A stretch of DNA of 64,000 bases from Bacillota bacterium (GTDB lineage Bacteria > Bacillota > JAAYKD01). The position numbers were made by a program, and so were the translations under genes. The stretch is from assembly GCA_963666425.2 (NCBI GenBank), contig OY762825.2, forward strand, positions 2,464,001-2,528,000, in the 5' to 3' direction. The notes beneath the pieces are model-generated. The model was not told the DNA's origin. It made no database searches and worked only from the letters and a program-made list of their open reading frames with translations. Numbering within the stretch: position 1 is the first letter of the stretch; each line of letters starts with the position of its first letter. Positions 9,449 to 40,600 of the stretch are shown here, piece by piece.

Positions 9449-9449
9449 C

Positions 9450-9503
9450 AAAACAACACAGTGCCTGAAGTAAAAAATCACTTCAGGCACTGTGTTGTTT
9501 TTT
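9450..9503. terminator. Bidirectional intrinsic terminator
   Basis: aaaacaacacagtgcctgaagt...acttcaggcactgtgttgtttt long perfect stem between convergent genes. Confidence 0.85.
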
Positions 9504-9546
9504 AGAGTCATTTGATCCACATCGAAGTGGATTGGCTTGGCAAATA

Positions 9547-10690: not shown

Positions 10691-10807
10691 GAGGATGCCT
10701 CCGGTATCTTTTACTTCTAATTTAGTATAAGGCTTGCCAATACTCAAGTAAAATAGTATAATAAGATAAATATCATAACAAATTTGTTGTGAAAGGAGAG
10801 GTTAGTC

Positions 10808-11719: not shown

Positions 11720-11851
11720 AGTGCTGTTGATTGGGGAAGCCAAAGACGAATCAAAGATTTAGTGCACAGAGAAGGAATTTCAGTCCGATTCACGGAAATA
11801 AAACGAAGCGAAGTCATTCGCAGTATAACAAATCAGAAAGAAGGTTTGAAA

Positions 11852-12256
11852 ATGATTTCGGAGTTTAAAAAATTCATCATGCGGGGCAATGTTGTTGACT
11901 TGGCAGTTGGCGTGATTATCGGCGGCGCCTTTGGGAAAATCGTCACATCGCTGGTCAATGATATGGTGATGCCGCTGCTCAGTGTGATTTTAGGCAGAAT
12001 TAATCTGGCCGGCTTAAAGGTCATCATCACTCCAGCTATCGGGACTGCCAATGAGGTCGCTTTGAAATACGGTGCTTTTTTGCAAGCCGTCATCGATTTT
12101 GTGATTGTCGCCTTGGCAATTTTTTTGATGATCAAACTGCTTTCAGCTTTTAAGAAAAAAGAAAAAGAATCACCGACGATTCCGCCAACGCCTTCCAAAG
12201 AAGAAGTGCTGCTGACTGAAATCAGAGATCTGTTGAAAGAAAAAAGTTCAGTATAG
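11852..12256 (+). CDS. mscL: Large-conductance mechanosensitive channel
   Basis: 'EFKKFIMRGNVVDLAVGVIIGGAFGKIVTSLV', 'LLTEIRDLL'. Confidence 0.97.
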   Translation: MISEFKKFIMRGNVVDLAVGVIIGGAFGKIVTSLVNDMVMPLLSVILGRINLAGLKVIITPAIGTANEVALKYGAFLQAVIDFVIVALAIFLMIKLLSAFKKKEKESPTIPPTPSKEEVLLTEIRDLLKEKSSV

Positions 12257-18504: not shown

Positions 18505-18592
18505 AATCAAACTTTAGGGCAAACTAATCGAAAGATTAGGACGCAAAGTCAGGAGTCTAAAGCATTACGATGTGATGACCGTCCGACCGCAA
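18505..18592 (+). ncRNA. c-di-GMP-I (GEMM-I) riboswitch, copy 1
   Basis: GGCAAAC-TAATC-GAAA-GATTA-GGACGCAAAG...GTCTAA...ATGAC: GNRA tetraloop, receptor and GGCAAA/GACGCAAAG hallmarks. Confidence 0.93.
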
Positions 18593-18617
18593 GCTTTATT
18601 TGCGGTCGGACTTTTTT
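18581..18617 (+). terminator. Riboswitch expression-platform terminator 1
   Basis: gtccgaccgcaa / ttgcggtcggac perfect 12-bp stem plus T6; 5' arm overlaps the aptamer 3' strand. Confidence 0.88.
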
Positions 18618-18655: not shown

Positions 18656-18684
18656 TTGACAATCCTTTTAATATGGTATATTAT
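18656..18684 (+). promoter_or_regulatory. Sigma-A promoter P2 upstream of second riboswitch
   Basis: TTGACA (18656-18661), 17 bp, TATTAT (18679-18684). Confidence 0.7.
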
Positions 18685-18719: not shown

Positions 18720-18805
18720 AAGTGTTCTTAGGCAAACTAATCGAAAGATTAGGACGCAAAGTCAGGAGTCTAAAACATTACGATGTGATGACCGTCCGAC
18801 CGCAA
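18720..18805 (+). ncRNA. c-di-GMP-I (GEMM-I) riboswitch, copy 2
   Basis: Near-identical copy of the first aptamer, 213 bp downstream. Confidence 0.93.
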
Positions 18806-18831
18806 GCTTTGTTTGCGGCCGGACTTTTTTT
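18794..18831 (+). terminator. Riboswitch expression-platform terminator 2
   Basis: gtccgaccgcaa / ttgcggccggac stem (one A-C mismatch) plus T7. Confidence 0.85.
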
Positions 18832-19243: not shown

Positions 19244-20095
19244 ATGAAAAAACTTTTCTTAAAACTGAGCGTTCTGGTCATGGTTCTAACGCTCGTCACC
19301 CTGCCGCTCGTCTCTGGAACGTATGCCAAGTATACGACTGCTGCAGATGGAACTGATACTGCCAGAGTAGCAAAATGGGGCGTGACGGTCACCGCTGATG
19401 TTCAGAATGTATTTGGTGATGCGTATCAAGCTGCCGCCGGTGGACATACTTCTGTTGATTATGCAACGGCTGATGTGACAGTTCAATCCGCGACTGACAA
19501 CACAGATGTTCTAGCTCCAGGCACGGAAGGTTCCTTCACTTTCGGTGTTGCAGGTACTCCTGAAGTATCCGTTGGTCTCGTCTATGATGCTACGGTAACT
19601 CTTACTGGTTGGACAGTTATTGCAGCTAATGATTATCAACCAATTAACTTTACTCTCTTTGATGGAACGCATTTTGCTACCACGGCGGGTGCATTTACAT
19701 CAGACACTGCGGTTTCTTTGACCGGTGCTCAACTCGATACAATAATTGATGGCCTTGACAGTACGAATGATCCCTTGACAGCGCTTACAAAAACCTATAC
19801 AGTTGCATGGGAATGGCCTTTCGAAAAAGCAGGTAATTTTAGTACATTATCGGTGGGAACTGATGTATCGACACATTTTGTTGCCAATGGATCCGGATAT
19901 CAAGCAGCGACAGGAAAATACGTTCCTGGAACAACCTATTACACTAGTCTTGCCGGAACAACACAGGTTGATACCAGTCATTTCCTTCCCGCTGGAAATA
20001 TTAGTTATGATTTTGCCGATACAATTCTCGGTAATCTAGCTACAGCACCGACACTTTTGATTACCGTTTCTATCACCGCAACGCAAATCGACTAA
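19244..20095 (+). CDS. SipW-dependent TasA/CalY-like secreted protein (putative major fibre subunit)
   Basis: RBS AAGGAG; SipW-class signal ending 'SGTYA-KYTT', then 'DTARVAKW', 'LAPGTEG', 'YTVAWEWPFE', C-terminal 'ITATQID'. Confidence 0.8.
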   Translation: MKKLFLKLSVLVMVLTLVTLPLVSGTYAKYTTAADGTDTARVAKWGVTVTADVQNVFGDAYQAAAGGHTSVDYATADVTVQSATDNTDVLAPGTEGSFTFGVAGTPEVSVGLVYDATVTLTGWTVIAANDYQPINFTLFDGTHFATTAGAFTSDTAVSLTGAQLDTIIDGLDSTNDPLTALTKTYTVAWEWPFEKAGNFSTLSVGTDVSTHFVANGSGYQAATGKYVPGTTYYTSLAGTTQVDTSHFLPAGNISYDFADTILGNLATAPTLLITVSITATQID

Positions 20096-20216: not shown

Positions 20217-20254
20217 TTGCGGCCAAAATCCATACTGCGGAGGAGGTGATCTGC

Positions 20255-21694
20255 TTGGCTCAGTCGAATCATGAAACGACAGTAAAAATGACGGAAACTC
20301 AGGAAAAGCAGACCACACTCCGGCGTTTATGGTGGCTGCTGCTTTTGTTGTTGCTGCTGCTCTCTCTATCCTTCAGCTATATCGGCTACTTGATTGGCAA
20401 ACAGGCAAACCTGGATGATTTCACCGGGCGGATCGTTGATACGATTGAGCTTGACTTGGGTGAAATCGGACAGAACGATGAAACAAAACCGGTCACCTTA
20501 TATCAATTTGATATTTCTGGCACTGTGATGTATACCGATGGCACGCCATATCGCAACGGTATCATCGAACTGCGAAGCGATGTCCGCTATACAATTACCG
20601 ATGCGAATGGTAACTTTGAATTTCTGCGTGTCACAGAGGGACAGCATACGATCAGCGTCATCGAGGGAACGCGGCGGCTGGCCTCCAGTACGGTTTCCTT
20701 TACCGGCGTCAGTTCTTTAAAAGTCAAGCAAACCATCCAACTGGGCAATGGTCATTATCTGATCAAGATTCCTTTGGAGGTCACTGTCATTAACCTGGTT
20801 CTGGAATTAAAAGACGAATCAAATCAGGAAACGATCGTTTTGGATCCGGATACGGCGATGCCCAGTCAACCGGGCCAGCCGGATCTCTCCGTTGATCCGA
20901 TCCTGCCGGGTGATCTCAGCCCGCAGGACGGCGGCAGCAGTAACCCAACAAACCCAACCGACCCGACTAATCCGAACAATCCGAACAATCCGACGAATCC
21001 AACCAATCCAACCAATCCAACCAATCCAACCGATCCGACGAACCCTACAAACCCGACCAATCCAACCGACCCAAACTCGCCGGATGTTCCGCTGACGCCA
21101 ACAGAACCAAGCACTCCGGACCCGGTGATTCCGGTTGATCCAACCAACCCGACCAACCCGACTACCCCTGAACTGCCAAACGATCCCGGGCTGCCGGCTG
21201 CACAAACCCCTGACAGAGCGCCCAATATGATTGTCACGGATACGATTGCTCCTGCCCAAATCTGGCAGCAGGCCACCGCCGTTGATATTTTTGCGCCGCG
21301 TGACGGAAATACCGGCGTCAGCAAAATTGGCGGGCAAACCGTGATTGCGCCCGGCGCTACCGGCAGATATATCTTTAAAATCAAAAACCCAGAGAGTTTT
21401 GCCGTTGTTTTCCAGATCAATCTTCTGGAAGAAGATCAGAATTTTCCCAAACTGCCCATGCGCTACCGCTTGTCGCAAGGTGTGATCCGCAATAGTTCGA
21501 TTGAATATTACGACTGGCGATCGGCGCAGGATGTCACCCTGCGCAATGTGACGCTGGATGCGAAAAGTGAGACTTTTTACACGTTAGAATGGCAATGGCA
21601 GGATACCTCCGACAGCATCGACACCGCAATCGGGATGCAGCAGGGTAATCCTCTCTATATTCTGGACATTTTAATTGGAGGTTCCTTTCAATGA
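20255..21694 (+). CDS. Membrane-anchored protein: TM, carboxypeptidase-regulatory-like domain, Pro/Thr/Asn stalk, C-terminal subunit-like domain
   Basis: Likely TTG start after AGGAGG; 'WWLLLLLLLLL' TM; 'TITDANGNFEFLRVTEGQHTI'; NPT repeats; 'IAPGATGRYIFKIKN...YTLEWQW'. Confidence 0.7.
   Translation: MAQSNHETTVKMTETQEKQTTLRRLWWLLLLLLLLLSLSFSYIGYLIGKQANLDDFTGRIVDTIELDLGEIGQNDETKPVTLYQFDISGTVMYTDGTPYRNGIIELRSDVRYTITDANGNFEFLRVTEGQHTISVIEGTRRLASSTVSFTGVSSLKVKQTIQLGNGHYLIKIPLEVTVINLVLELKDESNQETIVLDPDTAMPSQPGQPDLSVDPILPGDLSPQDGGSSNPTNPTDPTNPNNPNNPTNPTNPTNPTNPTDPTNPTNPTNPTDPNSPDVPLTPTEPSTPDPVIPVDPTNPTNPTTPELPNDPGLPAAQTPDRAPNMIVTDTIAPAQIWQQATAVDIFAPRDGNTGVSKIGGQTVIAPGATGRYIFKIKNPESFAVVFQINLLEEDQNFPKLPMRYRLSQGVIRNSSIEYYDWRSAQDVTLRNVTLDAKSETFYTLEWQWQDTSDSIDTAIGMQQGNPLYILDILIGGSFQ
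20942..21076 (+). repeat. Coding 9-bp tandem repeat, 15 x (N/D)P(T/N)
   Basis: NPT NPT DPT NPN NPN NPT... read directly from DNA and protein. Confidence 0.9.
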
Positions 21695-22227
21695 AAACAA
21701 GAGCAGCGATGAAATTACCGGGCTTTAGAACTTTTTTACGCAATCTGTTCCTTGTTTTCTTGAGTTTGATTGTTCTGTTCAACCTTTACATAATCACCGC
21801 ACAGCTTTTCCTGAAAAACGAGCTGCCGAAGGTTTTCGGTTATGCCCAGGTCATCGTGATTTCCGGCAGTATGCAGCCGGAAATTCAGGTTGGTGATCTC
21901 TTAATCATTCATCAGCAGGCAGAGTATGCCGTGAACGATGTGATCACGTATCATTCCGGTGCGAGCTTTGTGACACACCGCCTTGTTTCTATGCAGGGAA
22001 ATCAATTGGTGACGCAGGGCGATGCCAATAATGTGGCGGATCCGGCCATTGCTTTGTCGCAAGTGGAAGGGAAAGTCGTACTGCGTTTGTCAGCTTTGGG
22101 TAAATTGATCTATTTTCTCAAAACGAAACAGGGTATTTATCTGACAGTGCTGCTTGCCATCCTCTTGTTTGCGGTGCCATATGCGGCGGACGCCATCCGA
22201 CAGTTCAAAAATAAACCAAAGCAGTGA
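21691..22227 (+). CDS. sipW: Signal peptidase I, SipW (S26B) type
   Basis: 'VISGSMQP' (catalytic Ser), 'GDL', 'VTHR' (His), 'TQGDANNVAD'; TM segments at both ends. Confidence 0.92.
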   Translation: MKTRAAMKLPGFRTFLRNLFLVFLSLIVLFNLYIITAQLFLKNELPKVFGYAQVIVISGSMQPEIQVGDLLIIHQQAEYAVNDVITYHSGASFVTHRLVSMQGNQLVTQGDANNVADPAIALSQVEGKVVLRLSALGKLIYFLKTKQGIYLTVLLAILLFAVPYAADAIRQFKNKPKQ

Positions 22228-22766
22228 TGAAAATGAAAAAAGGCTATATTGTCTATCTCGTTTATTTGCTGATGGTGACCGTTGTGGTTGCCGCCGTTTC
22301 TCTTTCTAAATTTAGTACTACCGGAGAGGGAACAGACACGGTTGCGATCGCGAAACCAATCCTCAACTATCTGCCGCAGAGCGCTGAACGCAACGGGACT
22401 GAGCTTTTGGATATTGATAGCGGATTGAATGTCAGCGACCTGCTGCCCGGCGATATCTTAGTTTATCATTTTGACATCGTTAATTTTGAAAACGGCAACC
22501 TGAATCAGGTTTTATTAAAATATAAAGTCACCGTTGAATTTAGTCCGGTTTTGCCGAACTTACCCCTTACCTACACATTGGAGCCTGCCGTAGCTTATGA
22601 TTCCGCCGGCGATGGTTATGTCTATTTGGGATTTGGCGAGCAGATTGCCCATAGCTATACACTGACCATTACCTGGGATGAAACCTATGCCGGTTCCACT
22701 TATCTTGACAAACAGCAGACACTGCAGGTGAAGATTGAGGCAGTGCAGGTGGACAGTTTGACCTAA
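22224..22766 (+). CDS. Small SipW-dependent secreted protein (putative minor fibre subunit)
   Basis: Signal ending 'VSLS-KFSTT', 'DTVAIAKP', 'LLPGD', 'YTLTITWDE', C-terminal 'IEAVQVD', similar to 19244..20095. Confidence 0.72.
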   Translation: MMKMKKGYIVYLVYLLMVTVVVAAVSLSKFSTTGEGTDTVAIAKPILNYLPQSAERNGTELLDIDSGLNVSDLLPGDILVYHFDIVNFENGNLNQVLLKYKVTVEFSPVLPNLPLTYTLEPAVAYDSAGDGYVYLGFGEQIAHSYTLTITWDETYAGSTYLDKQQTLQVKIEAVQVDSLT

Positions 22767-22831: not shown

Positions 22832-23941
22832 ATGAATGAATCGATGGATGAGAATTATCCATGGGATAAAGCGACGGGGCAGGGGATCGATACCAGCTAT
22901 TACAACAATCGCGATCCCAGGACGGGTTTATATCGCCATAATTACTTAAGACAGGAAATGAAGAGACTGGATTATGAGAATCAGCTGCCTTTTTCCTTGA
23001 TTATTGGAGAAATCAACGGCCCGGGTTTTGACGCTGCTTCCTTGGGCTGCGATGAAGAAGACAAGCTGATGATTCGTTCGGTGGAAATATTGAAAGACTG
23101 CTGCCGCAAAGCAGGCGTTTTGGCAGCCATCGTCGGCAAAAGTTTCAGCATTCTTTTACCAAAGACAAATGATCTGGAAGCGGACCGTATTTTAACGCAA
23201 ATCATTTTTCGTTTCAGCACTTTTCAAAGCAATATTGGCAACGGTACGGTCGTGATCAGCCTGTCCTGTGGCTGTGCTACCAAGAGCAAACCGGAAGAGA
23301 CGTTGGAAACGATCATTAAATCCGCGATTGAAAATATGAATCAGCATAAGCTGCTGCAAAATCGGGAGCAGTGTAATTCTTTAATCCATTTCATTGCCAC
23401 GGTCATGCATGAGAAAAGCAGAGAAACAGAAGAACACTCCCTGCGACTCATCAAGTATGCGCGCGCGATTGGGACTGAAATGCACTTATCCAATCACCAG
23501 ATGAATAAGCTGGAGCTGCTTTCCATTGTGCATGATATCGGGAAATTCATTATCAGTGATTCCGTTTTAACGAAACCGTTTGCCCTCTCGGCAGATGAAA
23601 ATAAGGTGATTCACGAGCATACCGAAATCGGTTATCGCATGGCACTCTCTTATGATGAGCTGAAGCCAATCGCTTATGATATTCTTTGTCATCACGAATT
23701 CTGGAACGGAAACGGCTATCCTCTCGGTTTGAAAGCGACAGAAATACCGTTGCTCGCCCGTATCGTATCGATTCTGGATGCTTATGATGCCATGACAAAT
23801 AACCGGTCGTATCGCAAGGCGATGAACAAGCAGGCTGCGATTGCAGAAATCAAGAAATTTTCCGGCAGCCAGTTTGATCCGGTCATTGCAGATTTATTTG
23901 TTGAACGCATTGTGGAACGGGTAGACAAAGCAGAAGAATAA
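22832..23941 (+). CDS. HD-GYP c-di-GMP phosphodiesterase with degenerate GGDEF domain
   Basis: 'DPRTGLY', GGDEF position reads 'VGKSF'; 'HDIGK', 'HHEFWNGNGYP', 'DAYDAMT', 'GSQFDP'. Confidence 0.88.
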   Translation: MNESMDENYPWDKATGQGIDTSYYNNRDPRTGLYRHNYLRQEMKRLDYENQLPFSLIIGEINGPGFDAASLGCDEEDKLMIRSVEILKDCCRKAGVLAAIVGKSFSILLPKTNDLEADRILTQIIFRFSTFQSNIGNGTVVISLSCGCATKSKPEETLETIIKSAIENMNQHKLLQNREQCNSLIHFIATVMHEKSRETEEHSLRLIKYARAIGTEMHLSNHQMNKLELLSIVHDIGKFIISDSVLTKPFALSADENKVIHEHTEIGYRMALSYDELKPIAYDILCHHEFWNGNGYPLGLKATEIPLLARIVSILDAYDAMTNNRSYRKAMNKQAAIAEIKKFSGSQFDPVIADLFVERIVERVDKAEE

Positions 23942-23996: not shown

Positions 23997-26900
23997 TTGA
24001 CAAAACCAAAGTGGGTGAGAACGATGTCAGCGCAGAAGCTGATCTTGCTTCTCTGCGCTCTGATTTTATCGATATTTTTCATTTCACCGGCGGCAGCTCG
24101 GCTGTCGCTTTCTAAATATGTACTGGAAACGAAAACCTATACGATTTCGGTTGCTTCAGCAGAGCAATTTCCAATCACGGCAATGGCTGCGCTGCAAGGT
24201 ACAGCGCAAGTTGGGCAACTATTAACGGCCGGTGCGCTGACTCCCGCCGATGCGATGGCTACCGCCACCTATCAGTGGTTCAGCTGTGCTACTGTTGACG
24301 GCATCTACACTGAAATCATCGACGCCACGGCTGCCTCCTACACGCTGACCGCTGCCGAATATGGCAAATTTATCCATGTGGTTGTTACAGGCAGCGGTGG
24401 TTATAGCGGTCAGTTGACCAGCACTGCTGTTGGTCCGGTCAGCGCGGCTCCCATCACGATTGCCGCTCTTCTGGAGATCACAGTACCGGTCAAAGGGGAG
24501 CTTCCGGATCAAACAGTCGCTGCCAATGCGGAATATACCGCCGCCATCACCTGGTCACCGGTGGATTCCCCTTTCAAAGCATATACCATCTATACCGCTG
24601 CCATCACCATTACACCCAATACCGGCTATACCCTGACTGGGGTGGCTGAGGATTTCTTTACAGTAGCCGGCGCTGTGGCGAGTAACGCGGCAAATTCCGG
24701 CGCAGTGACGGCTGTTTTCCCAAGAACAGCGCCTGCCGTGATTAATCTGGCCGCGATTGCAGGCGTGACACCGCCGATGATCGGTGCGACACCGGTCGGA
24801 AGCATTACCGAAACCGATCAATATACAGCAAGTCTAACCTGGTCTCCCGCGCACAGCCAATTTTCTGCCGATACGATTTATACCGCAAGCATCACGCTGA
24901 CGGCGAAAACGGGTTATACCTTGACCGGCGTAGCGCAAAACTTCTTTACTGTGGCAGGTGCCGTAGCAACCAATGCCGCCGACAGCGGCGTGGTAACAGC
25001 CGTCTTCCCCAAAACAGCCTTGGTACCGATTTCCTTCTCTGCCATCGCCGGTATCACCGCTCCGGTCAAAGGCGCGCTGCCAACAACAAGTGTTATGGCA
25101 ACCGAACAATATACCGCAACAATTTCCTGGTCACCGGCGGATTCTCCCTTTAAAGCGAATACCGTCTATACGGCAACGATTTCGCTCACTCCGAAGACAG
25201 GCTATACTTTAGCCGGTGTTGCAGAAAATTTCTTCACGGTAGCCGGAGCGACCGCTGCCAACACAGCGAATTCTGGTTTGATCACAGCGGTATTCCCGGC
25301 AACCGCCAAAGAAAGCCTGACTGCTATTGGTCTCAGCGGAACAGCAACAATCGGTCAGCAGCTGACCGCTGTTGACCTTCTCCCCTCAGGTGCCACGGCA
25401 ACCTATCAATGGCAGCGCTCTGAAACGATCGATGGTACGTATGTTGATATTGCCGGAGCAACGAACACTGCCTATACCCTGGTGCTCGCCGATAAAGACA
25501 ATTATCTCAGAGTCGCTGCCAGCGGCAGCGGTAATTACAGCGCAACGGTTTATAGCAGTCCCAGCGCCAAAGTAAGCGGCATTGCTTTAATTAGTATCAA
25601 TGCAATTACCGGTACGACTCGTCAATATGAAACGTTAACAGCAGGATCCTTCTCGCCGACGGAAGCGACCGTCAGTTATCAATGGCTGCGCTCAGACAGC
25701 GCAAGCGGTGAATACAGCGAGATCGCAGGTGCGACTTCTTCAACCTATACGTTGGTGTTTGATGATAATAACCACTATATCAAAGTGAGAATCAGCGGCA
25801 CAGGCAGTTATAGCGGCAGTGTGGAAAGCGTCAGTTCCGGACCGGTTGTCTTTGCGGCGACGGCCATCACCGCTATGGCTGCAATCAATGGCACGCCTTA
25901 TATTGGTCAAACCTTGACCGCCGGCGCCTTGACCCCAGCGGAAGCGACAGCATCCTATCAGTGGCAGCAAAGCACTGCTCTCAATGGGACCTATACCAAC
26001 ATCAGCGGAGCAACCAATAGCAGCTATTACTTAACCGCGGCTGCCTTGAATCAATTTTACCGCGTGGTGGCGACCGGCTCGGGAACCTTCTCCGGCACAG
26101 TCAGCGCCAGCATCGGTCCGATTAAAACGGCGGCGCAGCAGATTACCGCCATCGGTGCGATCAGTGGTTCCACGGTATCAGGGCAGATTTTGACGGCCGG
26201 CACCCTGACTCCGGCCGAGGCGACGGTTACCTATCAATGGCAAAGATCCGATCTCAGCGGCAGCATCTATACGGATCTTGCCGGTGCCACTTCCGCCAGC
26301 TATACCTTGAGTGATGCCGATCTAAACTGCTATTTAAAAGTCGTGGCAACCGGTTATGGTACTTATACCGGCACAGTTATCAGTGCTCGCAGCGGTCCGG
26401 TAGCGACCAGCACACAGAATATCACGTCCATTGGTGCGATTACAGGAACCGCTCAAGTTGGTTCGACGCTGACCGCCGGTGCTGTGGCACCGACGAATGC
26501 GACGGTGACTTACCAATGGCAGACAGCGGATAACCTAAGCGGGCCCTATACAGATCTCAGCAATGCCACGTCTTCAACTTATACGGTAACCGCCGCAAAT
26601 TTTGGCAAGTTTCTCCGTGTAAAAGTGACCGGCTCCGGCGCATATGCCGCAACAGTTAATAGCGACGCGGTGGGTTCAGTCACCGCTTGTCCGTTAATCT
26701 CGATCACCAATATCAGCGGTACCGCGGTGACTACCTATACGGTGACTGCCGGAACTGTCGCCCCTGCCGGTGCCACGGTGAGTTATCAGTGGCGCAGATA
26801 TACCAGCAGCGATCCTGCAGCAAGCTATACCGTGATCGGCAGCAATGCCGCCGGTTACCTGCTGACTGCCGCGGATGAGAACACTTACCTGCGCGTAGCG

Positions 26901-29900
26901 GCGATTGGAACGGCCGCTTATACCGGAACAGTGCTCAGCAATTATATTGTGCCGAAAGCCAATACCGGCGGAATCACCGCTATCACTGCCATTGCAGACA
27001 GCATTGGTTTGACGGAAGTATTTCAGTCGCTGACAGCAGGTACAGTCACTCCTTACGGTGCTACCGTCACCTATCAATGGTATCGCTGCGATACGGCAAG
27101 CGGTACTTACGCTGTGGTGAATGGTGCAACTTCGAAAAACTATAATATCTTAGGAATTGATAAAGGCTATTTTTTCAAAGTGGAAGCAACTGGCTCCGGT
27201 TCTTACAGCGGTACGGTTTGGAGCCGTTATGCCGGTCCCATCACTGCAGCCCCTCTCAGCGCGATCGGTTCGATCAGCGGTACGGCGACGATCGGGCAGG
27301 TGATTACCGCCGGCAGTCTGACACCATCCGCCGCAACAGTCAATTACCAGTGGCAGAGATCCGATCTGAACGGTGAGAATTACAGCGACATTACAGGCGC
27401 AACCTCCAATACCTACACCCTGACTGCCGGCGATGAAAACCGATATCTCAAAGTTACCGTGACCGGCTTCGGTTATTACAGTGGAACTCTGACCAGTCTG
27501 CGCACCGGTCCGGTATTAACCAATGCAACGCCAATTACAGCGCTCAGCGCCATCGACGGGATTGCCCGCGTCGGCCAGATTTTAAACGCAGGTACAACCA
27601 CACCCTTGGGAGCGACCGTTACCTATCAGTGGCAGCGCTGCTCGGAAATCAATGGAGTTTACAGTAACATCAGCGGAGCGACAACGGCAACCTACACGCT
27701 CACACCAAGTGATCTCAATCAGTACATCAAATTGGTTGTTCACGGTGCCGGTATCTATGCTACGCCAGCCGAGGGTATCAGCAGCACAGCCTTTGGCCCT
27801 GTGGCGGTATGTCCGATCACCGCTGTTTCCAATATCATCGGCAAGGCGGAAGTAGATCAAATTCTAACTGCCGGTACAGTAACACCTTACGGAGCGACTG
27901 TCAGTTACCAATGGCAGCGTTATATCAACGGCAGTTATGCAGCCATCAGCGGTGCAACCGCCAGCACCTATACGTTGGTCACAGCGGATAACACTTATTA
28001 TATTCGGGTAGCGGTCAGCGGGATTTCCGGTTATTCCGGTACGGTGTACAGTAACAACACAGGACCGGTCGGGAGCCCCAATGCCATCAGCTCGATCAGC
28101 GCCATTACCGGCGTAACCAAAGTCAGTCAGGTGCTGACAGCCGGTACCGTGCTGCCGTATGGTGCTTCCGTCTCCTATCAGTGGCAAAATTCCAGTGAAG
28201 CCGACGGTACTTACGCTAATATCAGCGGAGCGACGAGCAGCAACTATACGCTAACCACTGCCGATTATGGTAAATACTTGAAAGTGATTGCCGAAGGTAC
28301 TGGCGTCTATTTTGGCGAAGTCATCAGTACACCGACCGATCTGATCAGCAAGGGCTCGATCACAGCAATCTCCAACATTAGCGGTTCGACGATCTCCGGT
28401 CAAACGCTGACTGCCGGTGTAGTGACTCCTCTCGGAGCGACTGTCACCTATCAATGGCAGCGAAGTGATACCTCCGGCAGCAATTACACCAATATCACGG
28501 ATGCCACAGCCAACACCTACTTATTAACAAATGCGGATGTAGCATGTTATCTGCGGGTTCTAGTTACCGGCAGTCAATCGTATGAGAGTTCTGTCACCAG
28601 TTTACCGACGGCTGTAATTTCACCCAGCGGCACGGCTACCACGGCGCTGATCAGCATCGCAGCGACCGGCGGCACGGCGGGCGTAGGGCAAACCTTAACG
28701 GCAGGAGCCGTTTCACCAAGCAATGCAACAGTGACTTATCAGTGGCAGCGCTCCGCCGGAGCGTCCGACAGCGCGTATGCTAATATCAGTGGAGCAACAA
28801 CAAGCAGTTACGTACTGACAGCAGCCGATTTCGGCAAGTATGTCAGGCCGGTAGCGACCGGCAGCGGTACTTTCAGCGGTTCGGTCAATCCCAGCGGTAC
28901 GTCAATTACCCTGAAGCAACTGGTCACAGCCGGCAATATCACCGGTACACCGGCGGTTGGTGAGACAGTGGTTGCGGGTGTCTTGACGCCTGCTGATGCC
29001 ACGGTCACCTATCAGTGGCTACGCGCCAGTAAAAACGGTACAACCTATAGCAATATTGCCGGAGCCACCGGCAGAAGCTATACGATTGTCGATGCGGATG
29101 ATGACGGTTATCTGAAAGTACTAATTGTTGGCACCGGAGCTTATGAGACAAATCCGACGGCCGGTTTACTCAGCGCCGCTTACGGCCGCATCGAACCTTA
29201 CCCCTTTAAGATCACCGCAATCAGTGCCATCACCGGAATTTCGCAGGTCGGTCAGCTCCTGCATGCCGGTGCCACCACACCTTACGGCGCGGCGGTTACC
29301 TATCAATGGCTGCGCAAAGTTGCCGGAGCGGAAACCTATGCTGAAATTATTGGAGCAACCGCCAGCAGCTATACAACAACGAGCAGTGACTATCATGCTT
29401 ATATTAAGGTGATTGCTACCGGTGCCGGTTCTTTCTCCGGTTGGGTAGAAAGCGCGCCGACTGCTTTGATTGCAGCAGCACCGCTGACTGCCATCGGCGG
29501 CATCAGCGGTACCGTAGCTACGGGACAGATCATTACTGCCGGTCTGCTTACACCGGTAGAAGCAACTGCTACCTATCAATGGCAACGCTCCGATACCTCC
29601 GGTGCAAATTTCAGCAATATCGCCGATGCAACCGGAAGCACCTATCTTTTGGGAGCATCCGATTTGAATTGTTCTTTGAAAGTAATTGCAACCGGCACGG
29701 GCAGCTATACCGGGACAGTGACGAGTTCTGCGGCTGGACCGGTCAGTGCAACCTTTCAATCGATCACCTCGATTGGACCGATTACAGGGACAGCGACTGT
29801 TAACCAAACCCTGACAGCGGGAGCCATTGTACCGACCAATGCCAGCGTAACCTACCAGTGGAAGCGGGCGGATTCAAGCGGAGGAAGCTACACTGCCATC

Positions 29901-32900
29901 AGCGGAGCAACGAATTCGCAGTACACGTTAACGGCTGCCGATTATGGCAAATTTATCAAAGTCGTCGCCACCGGCTCCGGCAGCTATGCCGGCAGTGTGG
30001 AGAATGCTGCTGTGAAAGGTGCCGTTGCCGCCTGCCCCATCACCGCGCTCGGCGATTTTACCGGTGCCTGCAATGTTGGACAAGCGCTCGTTGCGGGAGC
30101 AATTACTCCGTCCAATGCTACAGTAATCTATGAATGGTATATTTCAGATCAAAAGAAAGCTGATCCAAGCAGTTGGACTGTAATCGGCGCCACGACCGAC
30201 GCCATCGTGATTCCGGAGAATAAAATAGGTGCCGGTTCCGGTACGGATAATATTGGCTACTATATAAAAGTAGTGGTCACCGGCTCGGGTGCTTTCAGCG
30301 GCACGCAGTCAAAAGTGGTTGGACCGATAGGCAGTACGCTCAACCTGACTCCGCTGACTGCAATTGGGTCGATCATTGGTACAACAGCGCCAACACAGCT
30401 GGTCAGTGCAGGTAGTCTGACGCCGAACGGTGCCACGGTTACTTATCAATGGCTGCGCTGCCTGACTTCCGATGGAACTTATGAAACGATCACAGCTGCA
30501 ACTTCTGCTTCCTATACCATCCAAAATACGGATTTAGGTTACTATCTCAAGGTCAGCGCAACGGGAACCGGAGCTTATACCGGTATTGTGATTTCGGGCT
30601 TTAAGGGGCCGGTCATCGCACTCAGTCAAACGACGCCGATTACTGCCATTTCGGATATCCTTTATACCACTGCCCGCAACGTGACTTTGACCGCAGGCAC
30701 GGTGACGCCATTGCTGGCTACTGTGACCTATCAGTGGCAGGTCAGCAGCAGTATATCCGGCAGCTATACCGATATTGCCGGTGCGACAGCCAACACCTAT
30801 ACAATACCTTTGACTCAAACCTATGGCTATTATTTCAAAGTAAAAGCGACCGGTTCCGGTTCCTATACCGGCACCGTCACCAGCAATTATACCGGGCCAG
30901 TCGTAGAAACTCCTACTCCCCTGACCAGTGTTGCAATCAACGGTACGGCGCAGGCGGGACAGACTCTGACAGCCGCTGTACAGCCGACCAATGCCACCGT
31001 AACCTATCAGTGGCAGATTTCAACCACAGTCAATGGGACCTATACCGATCTAGCCGGAGCCACTGCTTCAACCTTCCTTGTCACGGTGGTAGAATACAAC
31101 TACTATCTGCGCGTTGTCGCCATCGGGTCCGGTGCCTATACCGGGACAGTGATCAGCGCTTCTACGGATCGCATCGCCGCTTTCCCGATTTCGGCCATGG
31201 CGCCGATCAGCGGAACAGCCACTGTGGGCAATACGATAACGGCGGGCGGCTTGACCCCGGCGGCGGCCACCGGGGTTTATCAATGGCAAATTTCCACTAC
31301 CGGCAATGCGGCTGACTTTACGGATCTAGCCGGGGCAACTAGTGCCACATTGGCGCTGAGCGCCAACGAACTTGGTCAATATCTGCGGGTTAGCCTGACC
31401 GGTTCCGGTGCCTATTCCGGCAGTTATATCAGCGCTGCCGTTGGACCGGTCGTCTATGCGGAAGCTGCACCGGTCGCCAGTAATGTCGGCAGCACCGGTT
31501 CGGCGCAAGTTGGTCAGACGATGAGTGGCTATTATACTTACAGCGATCTAAACGGCGATTTGCAGGGAACTTCGACTTACCGCTGGCTGGCGGACAATAC
31601 CGCGATCAGCGGCGCAACGGCAAATACCTACCTGATCACGACGGCTGAACTCGGCAAAACGATTCAATTTGAAGTAACCCCCATCGCGCTCAGCGGTACT
31701 TTGAGCGGTACGGCAGTCAGAAGTACTGCCAGCTGTGCGGTGGTGACAGCAGACGCCCCGCGGGCCAACAATGTCAGCATCAGCGGCAGCGCTTCGGTTG
31801 GACAAACCCTGACCGGTTCCTATACTTATAGCGACAGCAACAGCGACCCGGAAGCAACGAGTACTTTCCAATGGTATGCGAATGACACACTGATCAGTGG
31901 TGCGAACTCCCTCACTTACCTGTTGACTTTAGCGGAAAGCGGCAAGACCATCCGCTTTGAAGTAACACCTGCAGCGCAAAGCGGAACCTCTCCCGGCGCG
32001 GCCAGCAAGAGTGCGCCGACCGCAGTGGTGTCGGTGGAAGAAATGGCGCCAATGGCGCTCAATGTCAGTATCTTAGGAACCTCTATGGTTGGCGAAACGC
32101 TAACCGTAGATTATACTTATCTGGATCTCAATGGCGATCCGGAAGGCGACAGCCAGATTCAATGGTATGCCAGTGACCTCAGTGATGGCTCTGAAATGCT
32201 GATGCTGGCAGAAAATCCGAATCGTACGGCAATTAGCGGCGCTACCGCAAGAACCTTAGTTATCACAGCAGCACTGCAGCAAAAACAGATCGATGTGGAA
32301 GTCACTCCGGTGGCGACCAGGGGTAAAAAAATCGGAAATCCTGCCCGCAGCGCTAAAACAAACGCGGTAACAACGGATATCAGCCTGCTTACCATTAATG
32401 GGGTGACTGCTCCGGTGAAAGGAGCCGTTCCGGTGGTGAGTCTAGCCGAAACAACGGAATATACACTTTCCCTGGTCTGGTCTCCTGCAGTATCTACTTT
32501 TACCGCCAATACAGTTTATACGGCGACCATTCAGGTTACGCCGAAAGCAGGCTATAGTCTGGCGAAAGTCAAGCATAACAGCTTTACGGTGACGGGAGCG
32601 GTTGCTGCCAACGCAGCTCATAGCGGCAGCGTAACGGCAGTCTTTCCGGCTACTGCAAAAGAAACGCTGATCAGCGTTTCAATCAGCGGCAACCCGGTCA
32701 TCGGTGAAACTCTGACAATGGATCAATTGCTACCCGCTAACGCTGCGGTGACCTATCAATGGCAAAGAAGTACGGCCTTTGACGGTAGTTACAGTGATAT
32801 TGCCGGGGCGAATACAAATCAATATGTGCTGACGGCAGAGGATGATTTGCAATATCTGCGTCTGTCGGTCAGTGGTTCAGGAAATTTCACCGGTACGCTG

Positions 32901-35900
32901 AGCAGTGTCCCTATCGGACCGGTCAGTGCGCAAGGTAGAGTTCTCAACGGTATCACGGCAATCGGGGGTTTGCCTCAGGTAGCCAGCCTTCTGACTGCGG
33001 GGGTTCTGACGCCAGCCGGTGCCAGCGCAACTTATCAGTGGCAAAGATGCGCCACGATAGACGGCGAATATCTTGCGATCAGCGGAGCGACCGGCAGCAG
33101 TTATCTGCTGACAGCCGACGATTATCAAGCTTATCTGAAGGTAGTCGCGACAGGCTCCGCCGGTTTCTCCGGCGTGATTACCAGCGCGGCTACGGCGCAA
33201 GTGCAGAAAGGGCCGTTGACCGCCATCTCCGATGTAATTGGTACCACCGTAATCGGACAAATCCTAACAGCCGGAACGGTCACACCGCTCGGTGCTACGG
33301 TGACCTACCAGTGGCAGAGATGCGGTACCACCGGAGCCTATGTTGATATTGCAGGTGCTACGGCAAGTAGCTATCAGATCACCGGTTCAGACAGTCAGTT
33401 CTTCCTAAGAGTGATTGCGACCGGCACGGGTGTTTATACCGGCAGCGTGACGAGTGACTCCACCGTACATAAGGTTACGGAAAGCAGTATTGCGATAAGC
33501 AGCATCGCAGCCACCGGCGGCAGCATCCAGGTCGGCCGCACGCTGACTGTAGGTGAATTGACTCCCTACGAAGCAACAGTAACTTACCAATGGGTTCGTT
33601 CTGCGGCAGCCGACGGGACGTATGAACCGATTGCCGGCGCGACCAACGCGGCTTACACGCTGACAGCGGCTGACTGCAATCAGTATCTCCGGGTTGTGGT
33701 GCTAGGTTCCGGTTTGTATACCGGCAGCTTGACCAGCATCGCGGTCGGTCCGGTCTCTACCGGGGTTGTCTCGGCAATCGCCGCGATCAATGGTACGACC
33801 ACAATCGGCCAAACCTTAAGCGCAGGCGCTCTGACACCGCTTGAAGCCACCGTAACCTATCAATGGCAGAAATGCAGAACAGCCGGCGGCAGCTACACTG
33901 AAATTAGTGGAGCTACTTCGGCGACCTATACAATTACGGCAGCTGATTTCAACTACTATCTCCGCGTGGTTGCTACCGGTTACGGCAGCTATACCGCTTC
34001 CGCCACCAGTGCACCGACTGCCAGTAAAGTAGGCAGTGCTAATACGCCGATTAGCAAAATCGGTGTGATTGTTGGTCAGATGCGAGTCGGCAATACGATC
34101 AGTGCGGGAACTTTAACACCTACCGTTGCCACTGCGACTTATCAATGGCTGCGCTGTTCGACAGAAGACGGCAGCTACGAACCGATTGCAGGGGCGACCG
34201 GCTCGACTTATTGCTTAACCGCGTTGGATTACAATTATTATTTGAAAGTCACTGCTGTCGGCTCCGGCAGTTATAGCGGCAGTGTGACGAGTTTGGCATC
34301 CGCTCTGACGGCAGCCTGCCCAATCAGCTCCATTTCGGACATTATCGGAACCACAACCGCGGGAGAAACATTAACCGCAGGAACGGTTACCCCGCTCGGT
34401 GCCACGGTCACTTATCAATGGCAGACTTCGGATGCAACCGATGAGACCAAGTTTATTGATATTGCCGGTGCGACTGCGCAGGATTTCATTGTGATTGCGG
34501 AATACAATTATCGCTACCTCAAAGTGGTGGTGACCGGCAGCGGCGCTTATACCGGAACGATCGCCAGCGCTCAAACAACCAGCAGAGTGGTTGGAACCGT
34601 GCTTGCTACTCTCAGCGGTATGGATCCGATCATCGGCACGGCCAAAATCGGTAATACGCTCACTGCGGGGAATCTGATTCCGGCCGGCACGGATGCAACC
34701 TATCAATGGCAAAAGTGCACGATTGCCGACGGCACCTACGAGAATATTCCGGGTGCGGCAGACAATTCTTATGTATTGACAGCAACCGATTATCAATACT
34801 ATTTGCGGGTCGTCGCTACTGCCTCCGGCAGTTATATTGGCAAAGCCACCAGTGCAGTCGTGGGACCGGTCGAGGCTGGAACGATAACAGCGGTGGGACC
34901 GATCAGCGGCATGGCAGCAATCGGGCAGACTGTGAGCGTGGGATCCATCGAACCAAGCGGTGCGACGGTGACTTATCAATGGCAAATAAGTCCGACGGCG
35001 GACGGTGTCTATACCGACTTAACGGGTGAGACTTTTGCTCATTATACAATCAGCGAAGCTGATTACAACAGTTATCTGAAAGTGACGGTCACCGGCAGCG
35101 GCAGTTATAGCGGCAGTATCAGCAGCGCGGCCAGCAGTAAAATCAGCAATGCAACGTTTGCGCTGACCGCTCTGGAAGCGATGCATGGTACGGCTGCAGT
35201 AGCGCAGCAACTGACGGCCGGGGCAGTGTCTCCTGCCGGGGCAACGGTGACCTATCAATGGCAGAAATGCCTGACTGCGGATGGCCAATACGAAGACATT
35301 GCTGGTGCCACTAAGAGCAGCTATCTGATAACCGCCAATGAATACGGTTATTATATCCGTCTGACCGTCAGTGGCTCGGGTAATTATGGCGGCAGTTTAA
35401 GCAGCGCGGCCACGGGATTGGTGCAAAAAGCGACCATCACGGCAATTTCGGATCTGATCGGCAGCACAAAAATCGGCTTAACCCTGACCGCCGGCGAATT
35501 GACGCCCAGCGGAGCAACCGCCGATTATCAATGGCAGCGCTCCGATACCGGCGGCGGTCTGACTTACAGCAATATCCCCGGCGCCACGGCAGAAAATTAT
35601 ACCATAACCGGTGAAGACAGCTATTGCTACATTCGCGTCGTTGCCACTGGCAACGGCGCTTACAGCGGAACCATCACGAGTGAATCCACCGTCAGCAGAG
35701 TGAGCGCCGACGAGCTGACACCGCTGCAGAGTATTGCAGCCATCAGCGGCAGTACTGTGGTAGGACAAACGCTGACAGCCGGCGTGCTGACACCGGTCGG
35801 AACGGCAACCTATCAATGGCAGCGCTGCGCTACAGTCGACGGCAGTTTTGAAAATATCAGCGGAGCCAGCAAAGCGACTTACATCCTGACAGCGGCTGAT

Positions 35901-39952: not shown

Positions 39953-40600
39953 ATGAACACGATTGATCACACCAAAAAAACACGGGATAAAACTGTGATG
40001 GTGATTGGCATCCTGCTTTGCATCCTATTATTGCCGCTACTGATCATCAATGTAACGCTGATTGTGAAATCCTTTGTCTATCCCAATGAAGTACCAAGCT
40101 TCCTTGGCTATAAGCCGTTCATTGTCTTATCCGGCTCAATGGAACCGGAGTTTTATTCAGGAGATCTTGTCTTGGTGAAAGAAGTGGCGACAAATACCCT
40201 TCAGGTTGGGGACGTAATTTCTTACCGCGAGGGGAATTCAGTCATTACTCATAGAATCGTCGAGATCACCGAGAGCGCTGCCGGACGTAAATTTACGACC
40301 AAAGGGGATAACAACAACGTAAATGACAGAAATCAGGTATTGGAGAGTATGGTGGAAGGGCAGTATTTGCTGCATGTCTCCAAATTAGGTAATTTTGCGA
40401 TTTTTATGCAGACACCGATTGGTATGGTCATTTTTATCGCTTGCCCGTTGGCCTTGTTTATTTTGTATGATGTTTTGCGCCGTATTTTCTTTGACCGTAA
40501 GAAGAACCAGAAAACACAGGAATTGGAAGCCGAGCTGGAAAAAATGCGTCAGCAATTGGCGGAAAAGCAGGATAATAAGAACGAGCAGCCAAAAGAATAA
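39953..40600 (+). CDS. sipW: Second SipW-type signal peptidase I
   Basis: 'VLSGSMEP', 'GDL', 'ITHRI', 'TKGDNNNVND'; charged coiled-coil-like C-terminal tail. Confidence 0.92.
   Translation: MNTIDHTKKTRDKTVMVIGILLCILLLPLLIINVTLIVKSFVYPNEVPSFLGYKPFIVLSGSMEPEFYSGDLVLVKEVATNTLQVGDVISYREGNSVITHRIVEITESAAGRKFTTKGDNNNVNDRNQVLESMVEGQYLLHVSKLGNFAIFMQTPIGMVIFIACPLALFILYDVLRRIFFDRKKNQKTQELEAELEKMRQQLAEKQDNKNEQPKE

Follow-up and report, generated by a model that had tools for sequence, protein, structure and literature searches.

A giant anchorless Ig-repeat protein with a predicted N-terminal donor strand for TasA-like fibre subunits

Described donor-strand fibres and the locus of the giant

In chaperone-usher pili (Fim/Pap), the incomplete Ig-like fold of a subunit is completed by the N-terminal strand of its neighbour, and the tip adhesins FimH and PapG accept a strand and do not donate one. 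In the tapA-sipW-tasA system of Bacillus subtilis, which forms TasA fibres (PDB 8AUR), TapA is processed by SipW and, according to the published accounts, has a donor-strand-like N-terminus that was modelled or shown to complement TasA, while its body, an Ig-type fold that is already complete, cannot take up a further strand, which restricts TapA to initiation (PMC9674648, PMC10151520). The haloarchaeal Tat-fimbriae (tafi) are described as comprising a tip (TafC), an adaptor (TafE), a shaft (TafA), a membrane terminator (TafF) and a peptidase (TafD), an order that rests on AlphaFold models and MS of the components. As reported there, TafC is a larger protein whose donor strand is N-terminal; it is modelled as the chain starter at the fibre end, and its preferred acceptor is the small adaptor TafE, not the major subunit; TafF is membrane-anchored with a subunit-like domain, and a signal peptidase I gene lies within the tafi cluster (PMC11821415). 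A strand-only initiator already has published precedents: TapA and, at the level of a model, TafC. Finally, the preprint on the WxL (Elr) pilus of Enterococcus faecalis describes modular adhesins in which an invariant attachment module carries a variable payload (bioRxiv 10.64898/2026.10.17.759780).

We analysed a 64,000-nucleotide stretch of DNA from an uncultured Bacillota bacterium (hereafter, the window), which encodes a 5227-aa protein (23997-39680; precursor mass 530.9 kDa; hereafter, the giant). Positions are those of the window, all features lie on the plus strand, and the neighbouring proteins are named by their start positions. Two tandem c-di-GMP-I riboswitch aptamers (Rfam RF01051) stand upstream of the whole locus, the first at 18508..18594 (69.5 bits, gathering 35, E 5.3e-12), whose 3' end is overlapped by a terminator-like hairpin (18581-18611), and the second at 18721..18807 (66.9 bits, E 2.2e-11). 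They are followed by the gene for a TasA-like subunit of 283 aa (19244..20095; 22224-family N-terminal profile, E 8.3e-11), a candidate major fibre subunit that was found in every complete related locus and in two copies in L005. The 482-aa protein encoded next (20246..21694) is a candidate membrane-proximal anchor or terminator, as judged from Pfam and hhalign. It has an N-terminal TM/signal, a conserved strand-like motif, a CarboxypepD_reg-like domain (Pfam 5.7e-6, below cut-off), a Pro/Thr/Asn-rich linker and a C-terminal TasA-like domain; its C-terminal 150 aa matched the 22224 family profile in hhalign (probability 94.7%, E 6.4e-8, 84 columns), and orthologues occur in 7 loci. A SipW-type (ER/archaeal-type) signal peptidase I (21691..22227; TIGR02228, 72.7 bits, cut-off 51.85, E 2.9e-20) precedes a second TasA-like subunit of 180 aa (22224..22766), whose AF2 model, profile matches in the PDB and complex prediction mark it as a putative acceptor of the giant's strand, or adaptor for it. 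Between this gene and the giant lies a GGDEF + HD-GYP protein of c-di-GMP turnover (22832..23941; Pfam HD_5 1.8e-30, GGDEF 8.7e-12), and behind the giant a second SipW-type signal peptidase I with a charged C-terminal tail (39953..40600; TIGR02228, 108.3 bits, cut-off 51.85, E 3.3e-31). The latter matched the Bacillus-specific SipW model at 1.3e-31, below that model's cut-off, and its orthologue heads the locus in L001, L002, L005, L015 and L016.

This arrangement recurs. Every complete locus had a 20246-type protein along with a pair each of SipW-type peptidases and TasA-like subunits, and one or two giant ORFs stood behind a small TasA-like gene in 10 of the 11 related loci examined; downstream of that gene in L017, no giant was seen. 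In each of the 10 loci with a giant, the 22224 gene lies upstream of it, being adjacent in 7 and separated by one GGDEF/HD-GYP gene in 3 (the window, L003 and L014), a gene missing from that place in the other loci.

The subunits appear to be remote relatives of TasA. A profile of 106 relatives of 22224, searched against PDB sequences, matched TasA chains 8aur_A (E 2.4e-4) and 5of1_A (E 1.3e-3) over ~50 residues as the best two of six matches at E<=10. The alignment begins at TasA chain residue 9, and the donor strand of TasA is given as residues 28-38 (PMC9674648), indicating that the N-terminal segment of the subunits falls where TasA has its donor strand. The AF2 model of 22224 (pLDDT 92.8) gave a middling fold match to 8aur_A (Z 6.7, rmsd 3.6, 122 aligned, 19% identity), tied with unrelated beta-sandwiches headed by WxLIP 9i1y_A (Z 7.0, rmsd 3.9, 110 aligned, 8% identity); Foldseek against the PDB also placed 8aur_A first, at E 0.014 and prob 0.96, and nothing reached E<=0.001. 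Fim and Pap pilins were among the fold matches of 22224.

With TapA, the giant shares a SipW gene in its locus, subunits that appear to be remote relatives of TasA, an N-terminal strand that fits a subunit groove (for the giant, in silico) and a complete-fold body, a likeness of functional class and not of sequence family. However, its body comprises ~5170 residues of Ig repeats instead of one domain, its locus carries SipW twice and, besides a pair of subunit paralogues, encodes a fourth protein that is TM-tethered and has a TasA domain, and neither 19244 nor 22224 matched Peptidase_M73, any other Pfam model or any NCBIfam model. The tafi cluster has the same parts list, in which 22224 beside the giant would correspond to TafE beside TafC; it differs in being archaeal and Tat-exported, in its TafC of 37.8 kDa with a laminin-G-like head (as given in PMC11821415), and in the TM of TafF, which is C-terminal whereas that of 20246 is N-terminal. 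The WxL pilus, as presented in the preprint, shares sortase-independent donor-strand-exchange polymerisation in Bacillota and a strand-only protein without an acceptor domain, ElrB, placed at one fibre end (bioRxiv 10.64898/2026.10.17.759780). In that account, however, it is the tip adhesin that accepts the strand, in a groove provided by a C-terminal WxL domain, and the strand-only partner forms the base, anchored through LPxTG; SipW is not part of the machinery described, which includes the membrane chaperone ElrE. In the locus studied here, by contrast, the strand-only role falls to the adhesin-like giant, which lacks LPxTG. Fim/Pap pili share the principle of strand complementation but belong to Gram-negative bacteria with a periplasmic chaperone and an outer-membrane usher. 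Note that a diderm envelope, considered because the closest relative is labelled 'Negativicutes', was rejected, as no Omp85 was found in the giant's genome, which is 98.5% complete.

The giant protein and its N-terminal segment

The giant starts with a TTG codon at 23997, with an AAAGGAG Shine-Dalgarno upstream. Hydropathy, an AF2 helix over residues 12-33 and the -3/-1 residues of orthologues define a signal peptide of residues 1-39 (23997..24113) with a predicted SipW-type cut after S39. Behind the h-region (residues 15-33), the text runs ...AAARLSLS↓KYVLETKTYTISVASAEQF, where the arrow marks the predicted cut, K40 is at 24114 and F58 at 24170. The conserved 19 residues K40-F58 (24114..24170) are the predicted donor strand, as delimited by the orthologue alignment, the AF2 monomer and the complex prediction. 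The first Ig repeat begins at ~P59, directly behind them, and the anchorless body (24171..39680) consists of ~43 YQW-type Ig repeats of ~92 aa and two further repeat types. An earlier note on this DNA had described a protein of >500 kDa that enters its Ig repeats straight from a short N-terminal segment, and this description proved correct.

The same note had stated that the giant has no TM, no LPxTG with hydrophobic tail and no SLH, which hydropathy, Pfam, an SLH scan and the C-terminus all confirmed. The sole prominent hydrophobic 19-mer window has a KD of 2.69 at residue 15 (runner-up, 1.69), and Pfam over the entire giant, searched in three pieces, returned IG_AIR9 and SCAB-Ig only, with no SLH or other wall-binding domain. 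For residues 1-200, the sole NCBIfam match was ZirU (4.2e-7, below cut-off), located in the Ig domain (residues 49-131). The C-terminus is ...FPKTG followed by neither a hydrophobic stretch nor a charged tail, so that an LPxTG sorting signal is absent. We considered FPKTG as a degenerate sortase signal and rejected it, since it is the end of a repeat and the tail is absent: FP[KRA]T[AG] occurs five times in the giant, closing one repeat type, and four of these copies are internal. The orthologue P0157, from the same genus, ends in ...FPKTGND. Note that the genome encodes a sortase and has 49 SLH matches spread over many giant ORFs, none of them inside this giant (genome coordinates 2487997-2503680), indicating that ordinary anchoring routes exist and are unused by it.

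Conservation was assessed in 11 giants from 10 loci. All 11 carry [S/A]↓K-Y-[V/I]-L behind the signal, with K40, Y41 and L43 invariant and V42 at least 90% conserved, while the remainder of the 200-aa stretch is 27-39% identical when the window's closest relatives are set aside; with K-Y-[V/I]-L kept in 11/11 giants, segment K40-F58 is not a product of chance. Hydrophobic positions alternate and are conserved up to ~residue 55. Within the genome, [AS][KR][YF] behind an h-region was found in 44 of 2114 h-region ORFs, mostly spurious short ORFs. Among proteins of 82-2000 aa, a word-based search with the 46-residue signal and strand piece yielded 32 candidates, all with E above 10. Residues 1-150 searched against proteins of 2874-9148 aa gave 35 matches, of which P0157 has the N-terminus with K-Y-V-L and the other 34 match Ig1 alone.

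Small residues precede K40 in all 11 orthologues (-3, S in 9 and T in 2; -1, A in 6 and S in 5), whereas the upstream AAA is shared by the window and L014 alone (L003 has AAT), suggesting that the conserved cleavage option lies directly before K-Y and not at AAA; in the window's lineage, AAA↓R, five residues upstream, suits a canonical peptidase at least equally well. Y41 is an aromatic residue at P2' of the predicted cut. According to the study of TasA processing, residues P3-P4' decide which peptidase can process TasA, it is an aromatic P2' that renders TasA a poor substrate of P-type peptidases and a SipW client, and 0 of 143 verified LepB substrates are given as having one (PMC10269814). 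Given the -3/-1 pair, the aromatic P2' and the two SipW genes, the giant is probably cut by a SipW-type peptidase before K40. At E<=1, the model for SipW-cognate signals, TIGR04088, matched neither 19244 nor 22224 nor residues 1-200 of the giant.

The likeness that the earlier note had drawn between the giant's strand and those of 19244 and 22224 stood in part. The quoted strings are present (signal ends ...GTYA↓KY in 19244 and ...VSLS↓KF in 22224), as are the [S/A]↓K-[Y/F] tripeptide and a general beta character. Profile homology, however, did not hold. An HMM of the subunit N-terminus, run against 11368 genome ORFs, found 22224 (6.5e-16) and 19244 (8.3e-11), and the 20246 ORF at E 2.5 only, but the giant was not listed at E<=10 with profiles of either residues 1-47 or residues 24-47, and we dropped homology of the strands after this negative search.

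Predicted docking and competing readings

The invariant K40, Y41 and L43 sit within the first four residues past the predicted cut, in the part of the P3-P4' span reported to determine peptidase choice for TasA (PMC10269814), and the giant's strand has no profile similarity to the subunits' strands. Both points would suit a reading in which K-Y-V-L is a processing or export determinant for SipW-type peptidases only, and the giant is freed to the matrix or sticks through its Ig repeats, unplugged. We regard this as unlikely, since the alternating hydrophobic conservation runs far beyond K-Y-V-L, to ~residue 55, and the linkage to a small subunit gene in all giant-bearing loci would be left unexplained. 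The structure predictions also argue against it.

We predicted the complex of mature 22224 (residues 29-180) with residues 40-150 of the giant in three runs, along with three controls, using our own alignments. Note that ipSAE expresses the confidence of the model itself, which could be biased by donor-strand fibres whose structures have already been solved (TasA 8AUR). The ipSAE was 0.89 in the three runs and 0.00, 0.00 and 0.25 in the controls. Among solved complexes, 116 of 157 reached this mark, against 2 of 215 among mismatched pairs, counts that hold only roughly here because our own alignments were used. A docking score so far above the controls is unexpected for a segment that serves cleavage only. 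Contacts agreed by at least 92% between the runs, and the partner had a pLDDT of 93. In the model, the giant's strand inserts between two edge segments of 22224, the interface comprising residues 40-43, 45-59 and 61 of the giant (expected errors 0.4-0.6 A for 40-43 and 45-59) and, on the side of 22224, the C-terminal strand 160-176, segment 67-75 and residues 45-51. The strongest contacts are predicted at residues 46-55 and not at 40-43. The note's central proposal, that a ~20-aa N-terminal donor strand docks non-covalently in a fibre subunit, was thus borne out in silico by the docking score, the coil state of the lone strand (see below) and the conservation in 11/11 giants. Note that 22224, 19244 and the C-domain of 20246 are indistinguishable as acceptors, because close paralogues also pass such predictions. 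The support does not extend to the note's choice of the last fibre subunit as acceptor, or to its placing of the giant at the tip instead of the proximal or nucleating end.

It is very improbable that the hydrophobic segment stays uncleaved as a signal anchor, which would make the giant a membrane-tethered stalk with the conserved segment juxtamembrane. The segment is the single hydrophobic one in a giant with no other anchor, and a membrane tether would account for retention without a partner. However, the h-region has only ~15-19 residues, behind which come a helix breaker (S/P) and the small -3/-1 pair in 11/11 orthologues, two dedicated peptidase genes lie in the locus, and in the docking prediction the strand is N-terminal and free. 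Least probable of all, and hardly credible, is that the segment is an N-terminal cap or extra strand of Ig1, or a site for a non-TasA-like partner with the fibre genes merely co-regulated: repeat adhesins often pack short N-terminal strands on their first domain and the locus is co-regulated by c-di-GMP riboswitches, but in the giant's N-terminus folded alone residues 34-57 are coil (block pLDDT 51-72) without packing on Ig1 (residues 61-150, pLDDT 93-97), and the interface with 22224 is carried by residues 40-59, Ig1 touching it through 82-85 and 135-136 only.

A proposed fibre and its meaning

We therefore favour, with some reserve, the reading that a SipW-processed, TapA/TafC-like donor strand ties the giant non-covalently to a TasA-type fibre. 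The giant would be exported by Sec, and one of the two SipW-type peptidases of the locus would cut directly before K40. The freed N-terminus K40-F58 would then be a strand-only plug without a fold of its own, predicted to complete the beta-sandwich of a TasA-like subunit between the C-terminal strand and the 67-75 segment, and the Ig-repeat chain of 527 kDa would thereby be tied non-covalently to a donor-strand-linked fibre of the 19244 and 22224 proteins. Ig1 is a complete fold without the strand (pLDDT 93-97) and the rest of the giant comprises IG_AIR9/SCAB-Ig repeats only. Given that the giant donates a strand and has no acceptor groove, it would be confined to the groove end of a fibre, where it would both start and cap the chain, as TapA does for TasA and TafC (modelled) for tafi. 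The most economical order would run from the giant through the 22224 adaptor and the 19244 shaft to 20246, a membrane-tethered stalk with a TasA-like acceptor domain. Docking of the conserved strand in a neighbouring subunit would explain how the cell retains an anchorless giant.

A further step, which we put forward only tentatively and consider rather doubtful as a whole, is that the genes of the locus together specify an entire TasA-type pilus, polar and independent of sortase, in a monoderm bacterium. Here the 20246 stalk would accept the last subunit of a 19244 shaft, 22224 would be a dedicated adaptor, and the 0.5-MDa giant would nucleate the fibre and become its distal tip, held by the 19-residue strand only, with two SipW peptidases and tandem c-di-GMP riboswitches controlling assembly.

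The display of giant repeat adhesins in Gram-positive bacteria is as a rule ascribed to LPxTG/sortase, SLH or other modules that bind the wall, and anchorless giants are usually left as 'secreted'. If the donor-strand reading is true, a strand of 19 residues would suffice to attach a protein of 527 kDa to a TasA-type fibre, and many anchorless giants encoded beside SipW genes would become interpretable. TasA-type fibres would gain a polar, tipped architecture like that of chaperone-usher, WxL and tafi filaments, and the strand and its groove would offer a compact tag, encodable in a gene, by which proteins could be displayed non-covalently on fibres. Should the polar-pilus reading also be true, it would add a third, non-covalent display route for giant fibrillar adhesins, besides sortase and SLH.

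The giant protein and its missing anchor

The giant ORF (23997-39680, + strand; 5227 codons) starts with TTG downstream of an AAAGGAG Shine-Dalgarno sequence, and its product has an h-region at residues 15-33 followed by ...AAARLSLS|KYVLETKTYTISVASAEQF, where the bar marks the putative cleavage site. By translation, the predicted strand K40-F58 is encoded from 24114 (K40) to 24170 (end of F58) on the + strand, and the Ig-type repeats set in at about P59. The sequence strings quoted in the earlier note were correct. Hydropathy analysis gave one strongly hydrophobic window (KD 2.69 at residue 15; next best 1.69), and Pfam searches of residues 1-1000, 1001-4228 and 4229-5227 matched IG_AIR9 and SCAB-Ig only; the Ig repeats follow the N-terminal segment directly, without a subunit body. 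FP[KRA]T[AG] ends one repeat type and occurs five times; the C-terminal ...FPKTG is the last of these, no hydrophobic or charged tail follows it, and an orthologue from the same genus ends in ...FPKTGND. None of the 49 SLH matches of the genome lies inside the giant gene. The earlier claim that this protein (530.9 kDa as precursor, 526.6 kDa from K40) carries no TM, LPxTG tail or SLH anchor was thus borne out by hydropathy, Pfam and the SLH scan, and its sequence features were confirmed as a whole.

The absence of an anchor is meaningful for this organism, given that its genome (98.5% complete) has one sortase gene and that the SLH matches are distributed over numerous ORFs of very large size, among them open frames of 5005, 4222, 3643, 3407, 3390 and 2777 aa. 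Since many giant ORFs carry SLH domains, SLH is the usual anchoring route for its giants. Examples on the same contig (2416933-2417238, 2459380-2459874, 1901261-1908457 and 469379-469810) come from the many other giants, open frames of 2000-5000 aa with SLH triplets, and the end of one of these ORFs lies a short way upstream of the window. Because no Omp85 was found in the genome, the organism is probably a monoderm, despite the 'Negativicutes' label of its nearest relative. Shorter giants (2062-2473 aa) of related loci end in acidic Pro/Glu/Asp-rich tails (L001 11100-11340, L002 17400-17775, L005 about 17700-17900), likewise without TM or LPxTG.

Gene order, conservation and signal processing

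The locus begins with the gene for a 283-aa exported protein, 19244 (19244-20095; signal end ...GTYA|KY), which is duplicated in L005. It is followed by genes for a 482-aa protein, 20246 (20246-21694, + strand), with an N-terminal TM, a CarboxypepD_reg-like domain, a Pro/Thr/Asn-rich linker and a C-terminal domain; an ER/archaeal-type (SipW-type) signal peptidase I (21691-22227; TIGR02228, 72.7 bits against a cut-off of 51.85); a 180-aa exported protein, 22224 (22224-22766; signal end ...VSLS|KF); a GGDEF + HD-GYP protein (22832-23941); the giant; and a second SipW-type peptidase (39953-40600; 108.3 bits). Two such peptidases occur in every complete locus and may have different clients; the longer of the two ends in a coiled tail rich in charge (39953-40600 in the window, 1334-1987 in L001, 6678-7340 in L002) and stands at the locus head in L001, L002, L005, L015 and L016 and after the giant in the window. 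Just past it, a convergent multi-TM PAS-GGDEF-HD-GYP protein (40684-42708, - strand) is the second c-di-GMP enzyme at the locus. Immediately 5' of the riboswitches described below, a 974-aa ORF (15448-18372, + strand) has a signal-like N-terminus (...ALQA|VW, with an aromatic P2') and an internal Ala/Val-rich TM, and gave no Pfam or NCBIfam match. The long ORFs on either strand at 45200-46090 are spurious and stem from a tandem array (136-bp unit, 6.6 copies, 91% matches).

Relatives of the 180-aa protein were gathered and their downstream genes read. Pattern scans gave 73 matches in genome contigs, leading to two loci, and 46 in metagenome contigs, leading to four, and four further regions were taken from whole-genome matches, so that 11 loci were compared (the window, L001-L006 and L014-L017). 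By whole-genome search, 4 of 10 genomes from the class carried the family, and at phylum level 5 of the 401 sampled did, counting the window's own. A giant ORF follows the small gene in 10 of the 11 loci, directly in seven and after a GGDEF/HD-GYP gene in the window, L003 and L014; none was seen on the short contig of L017. L015 (G004:C12) has two tandem giants on the minus strand (about 4302-12014, 2571 aa; 3-4010, at least 1336 aa), each starting with its own signal and an S|K-Y-V-L-D strand.

All 11 giants have [S/A]|K-Y-[V/I]-L after the h-region; their alignment shows no variation at K40, Y41 and L43 and at least 90% conservation at V42, with an identity to the window giant of 27-39% over 200 residues, its closest relatives excepted. 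Residue -1 is A in six and S in five, and residue -3 is S in nine and T in two. The upstream AAA|R site, cleavage at which would speak against the proposal according to the earlier note, is present in the window and L014 only, with AAT in L003. Among 2114 h-region ORFs of the genome, 44 have [AS][KR][YF] just after the h-region, most of them short frames that are spurious, and the three genuine ones lie together in this locus. In a search of 11368 ORFs, N-terminal profiles of the subunit family detected 22224 (6.5e-16) and 19244 (8.3e-11) and did not detect the giant at E<=10. The parallel drawn earlier among the three N-termini therefore holds for the cleavage-site tripeptide and beta character, which the sequences share, and not for strand homology.

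TasA, with Trp as its P2 and Phe as its P2' residue, is reported to be a client of SipW, a dedicated ER-type peptidase; none of 143 verified LepB substrates reportedly carries an aromatic residue at P2', where such residues slow P-type peptidases (PMC10269814). A cut in front of K40 would make the invariant Y41 the P2' residue; the corresponding residue is Phe in 22224 and Tyr in 19244, whose P2 is also Tyr. These aromatic residues fit with the two SipW genes per complete locus, suggesting SipW processing. Note that TIGR04088, the SipW-cognate signal, matched none of 19244, 22224 and the giant.

Probable TasA kinship and predicted docking

The family of the 180-aa protein is large and unnamed (701 cluster representatives at E<=1e-3, 118 at E<=1e-10), and the consensus of 106 members starts ...VSxSRYxTxxxGxxxAxVA.... 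Against all PDB sequences, the family profile placed TasA first (8aur_A, E 2.4e-4; 5of1_A, 1.3e-3), followed by archaeal AbpX (0.2-0.3). The alignment with TasA begins at TasA chain residue 9, and therefore the family's post-cleavage segment sits at the place of the TasA donor strand, described as residues 28-38 (PMC9674648). The AF2 model of the protein (pLDDT 92.8) comprises a signal helix (6-30), a coil (31-47) and a beta-sandwich (48-175). Its best Foldseek match was the TasA fibre (E 0.014, prob 0.96), with Fim/Pap pilins next and no match at E<=0.001; VIA gave 8aur_A at Z 6.7 (rmsd 3.6, 122 aligned, 19% identity), tied with WxLIP 9i1y_A (Z 7.0) and unrelated sandwiches. These fold searches agree with a TasA relation and are not decisive alone. 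Homology to the family extends to the last 150 residues of the 482-aa protein (hhalign probability 94.7%, E 6.4e-8). A TasA-like acceptor body is thus present in three proteins of the locus and absent from the giant. After its long N-terminal TM, the 482-aa protein also shows a conserved strand-like motif (FTGRIVDTIELD in the window, Y-T-G-Q-I-V-D-T-I-T-I elsewhere), separate from the CarboxypepD_reg domain, with the Pro-rich linker and TasA-like C-domain following; orthologues occur in L014, L015, L016, L005, L002 and L001, and in L002 S|R-Y precedes the motif, as in the subunits.

The complex of mature 22224 (29-180; 106-row alignment) with giant 40-150 (11-row alignment) was predicted at ipSAE 0.89 in three of three runs, with at least 92% of contacts in agreement (pLDDT 93 for the partner, 86 for the other chain). 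Controls gave 0.00 and 0.00 with the partner replaced and 0.25 with 22224 replaced. Of 157 solved complexes, 116 reach the docking mark, against 2 of 215 mismatched pairs; both counts apply only approximately here, since our own alignments were supplied. The predicted interface joins giant 40-43, 45-59 and 61 (with 82-85 and 135-136) to 22224 160-176, 67-75, 45-51 and neighbouring positions. In the model, the giant strand pairs antiparallel with the last strand of 22224 (169~48, 167~50, 171~46) and parallel with its segment 67-75 (68~50, 69~51, 73~54), and would thus be sandwiched in the groove in the style of donor-strand complementation. Modelled alone, residues 34-57 of the giant are coil (block pLDDT 51, 62, 72) and Ig1 (61-150) scores 93-97, indicating that the segment is not part of Ig1.

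The complex modelling proposed earlier thus favoured the roughly 20-aa donor strand in silico, and bears on the 22224 groove, with the wording 'last fibre subunit' lying outside this outcome. The score is the model's confidence and not a measurement, and may partly reflect a general 'memory' of such interfaces, a solved TasA fibre existing. Close cousins of a true partner pass as well; the score therefore does not settle the choice among 22224, 19244 and the 20246 C-domain, any of which may be the real acceptor.

Proposed assembly and its control

At the sequence level, the mechanism has its basis in the conserved strand, the lack of acceptor body and anchor, and the linkage to SipW and TasA-like genes, and the giant strand is predicted to fill a subunit groove. 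SipW would cut the giant before K40, the freed strand would complement a subunit, and this subunit would hand its own N-terminal strand to the next, as for TapA/TasA; a protein that offers a strand and no groove would be confined to the chain's groove end. This principle is already published, for TapA and, as a model, for TafC of the tafi: TapA is described as donating its N-terminus and, having a complete Ig fold, as unlikely to act past initiation (PMC9674648; PMC10151520), and WxL and chaperone-usher pili are donor-strand fibres with tips.

The haloarchaeal tafi are described with the same parts list as this locus: TafC, with an N-terminal donor strand, begins the chain and sits at the tip in the model, the small adaptor TafE is preferred over the major subunit as its acceptor, TafA forms the shaft, TafD is the signal peptidase, and TafF, anchored in the membrane and bearing a subunit-like domain, is the terminator (PMC11821415). 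By analogy, the giant would correspond to TafC, 22224 to TafE, 19244 to TafA and 20246 to TafF; a 22224-type gene lies upstream of the giant in all 10 giant-bearing loci. This mapping would make the giant distal, as the earlier note proposed. ElrB, the strand-only subunit of the WxL pilus, is however described as the base, not the tip (bioRxiv 10.64898/2026.10.17.759780), and therefore both a distal and a proximal giant are possible. The interpretation is accordingly supported in part, for the strand plug in silico, with tip position and acceptor identity outside that support. Among literature matches, most judged by title or abstract, we found no paper in which an N-terminal strand holds a giant Ig-repeat protein on a TasA-type fibre; new here are the conservation count, the profile link to TasA, the P2' argument and the controlled docking prediction.

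Upstream of 19244, the first fibre gene, lie two tandem c-di-GMP-I riboswitch aptamers (RF01051; 18508-18594 and 18721-18807, + strand; 69.5 and 66.9 bits against a gathering score of 35), with a terminator-like hairpin (18581-18611) overlapping the first and a promoter-like site (11/12; 18656-18684) among them. No comparable hairpin was seen between 19244 and the giant, those present having 5-9 pairs and lying inside coding sequence. The tandem riboswitches and the gene run fit a biofilm or adhesion structure that would be turned on by c-di-GMP.
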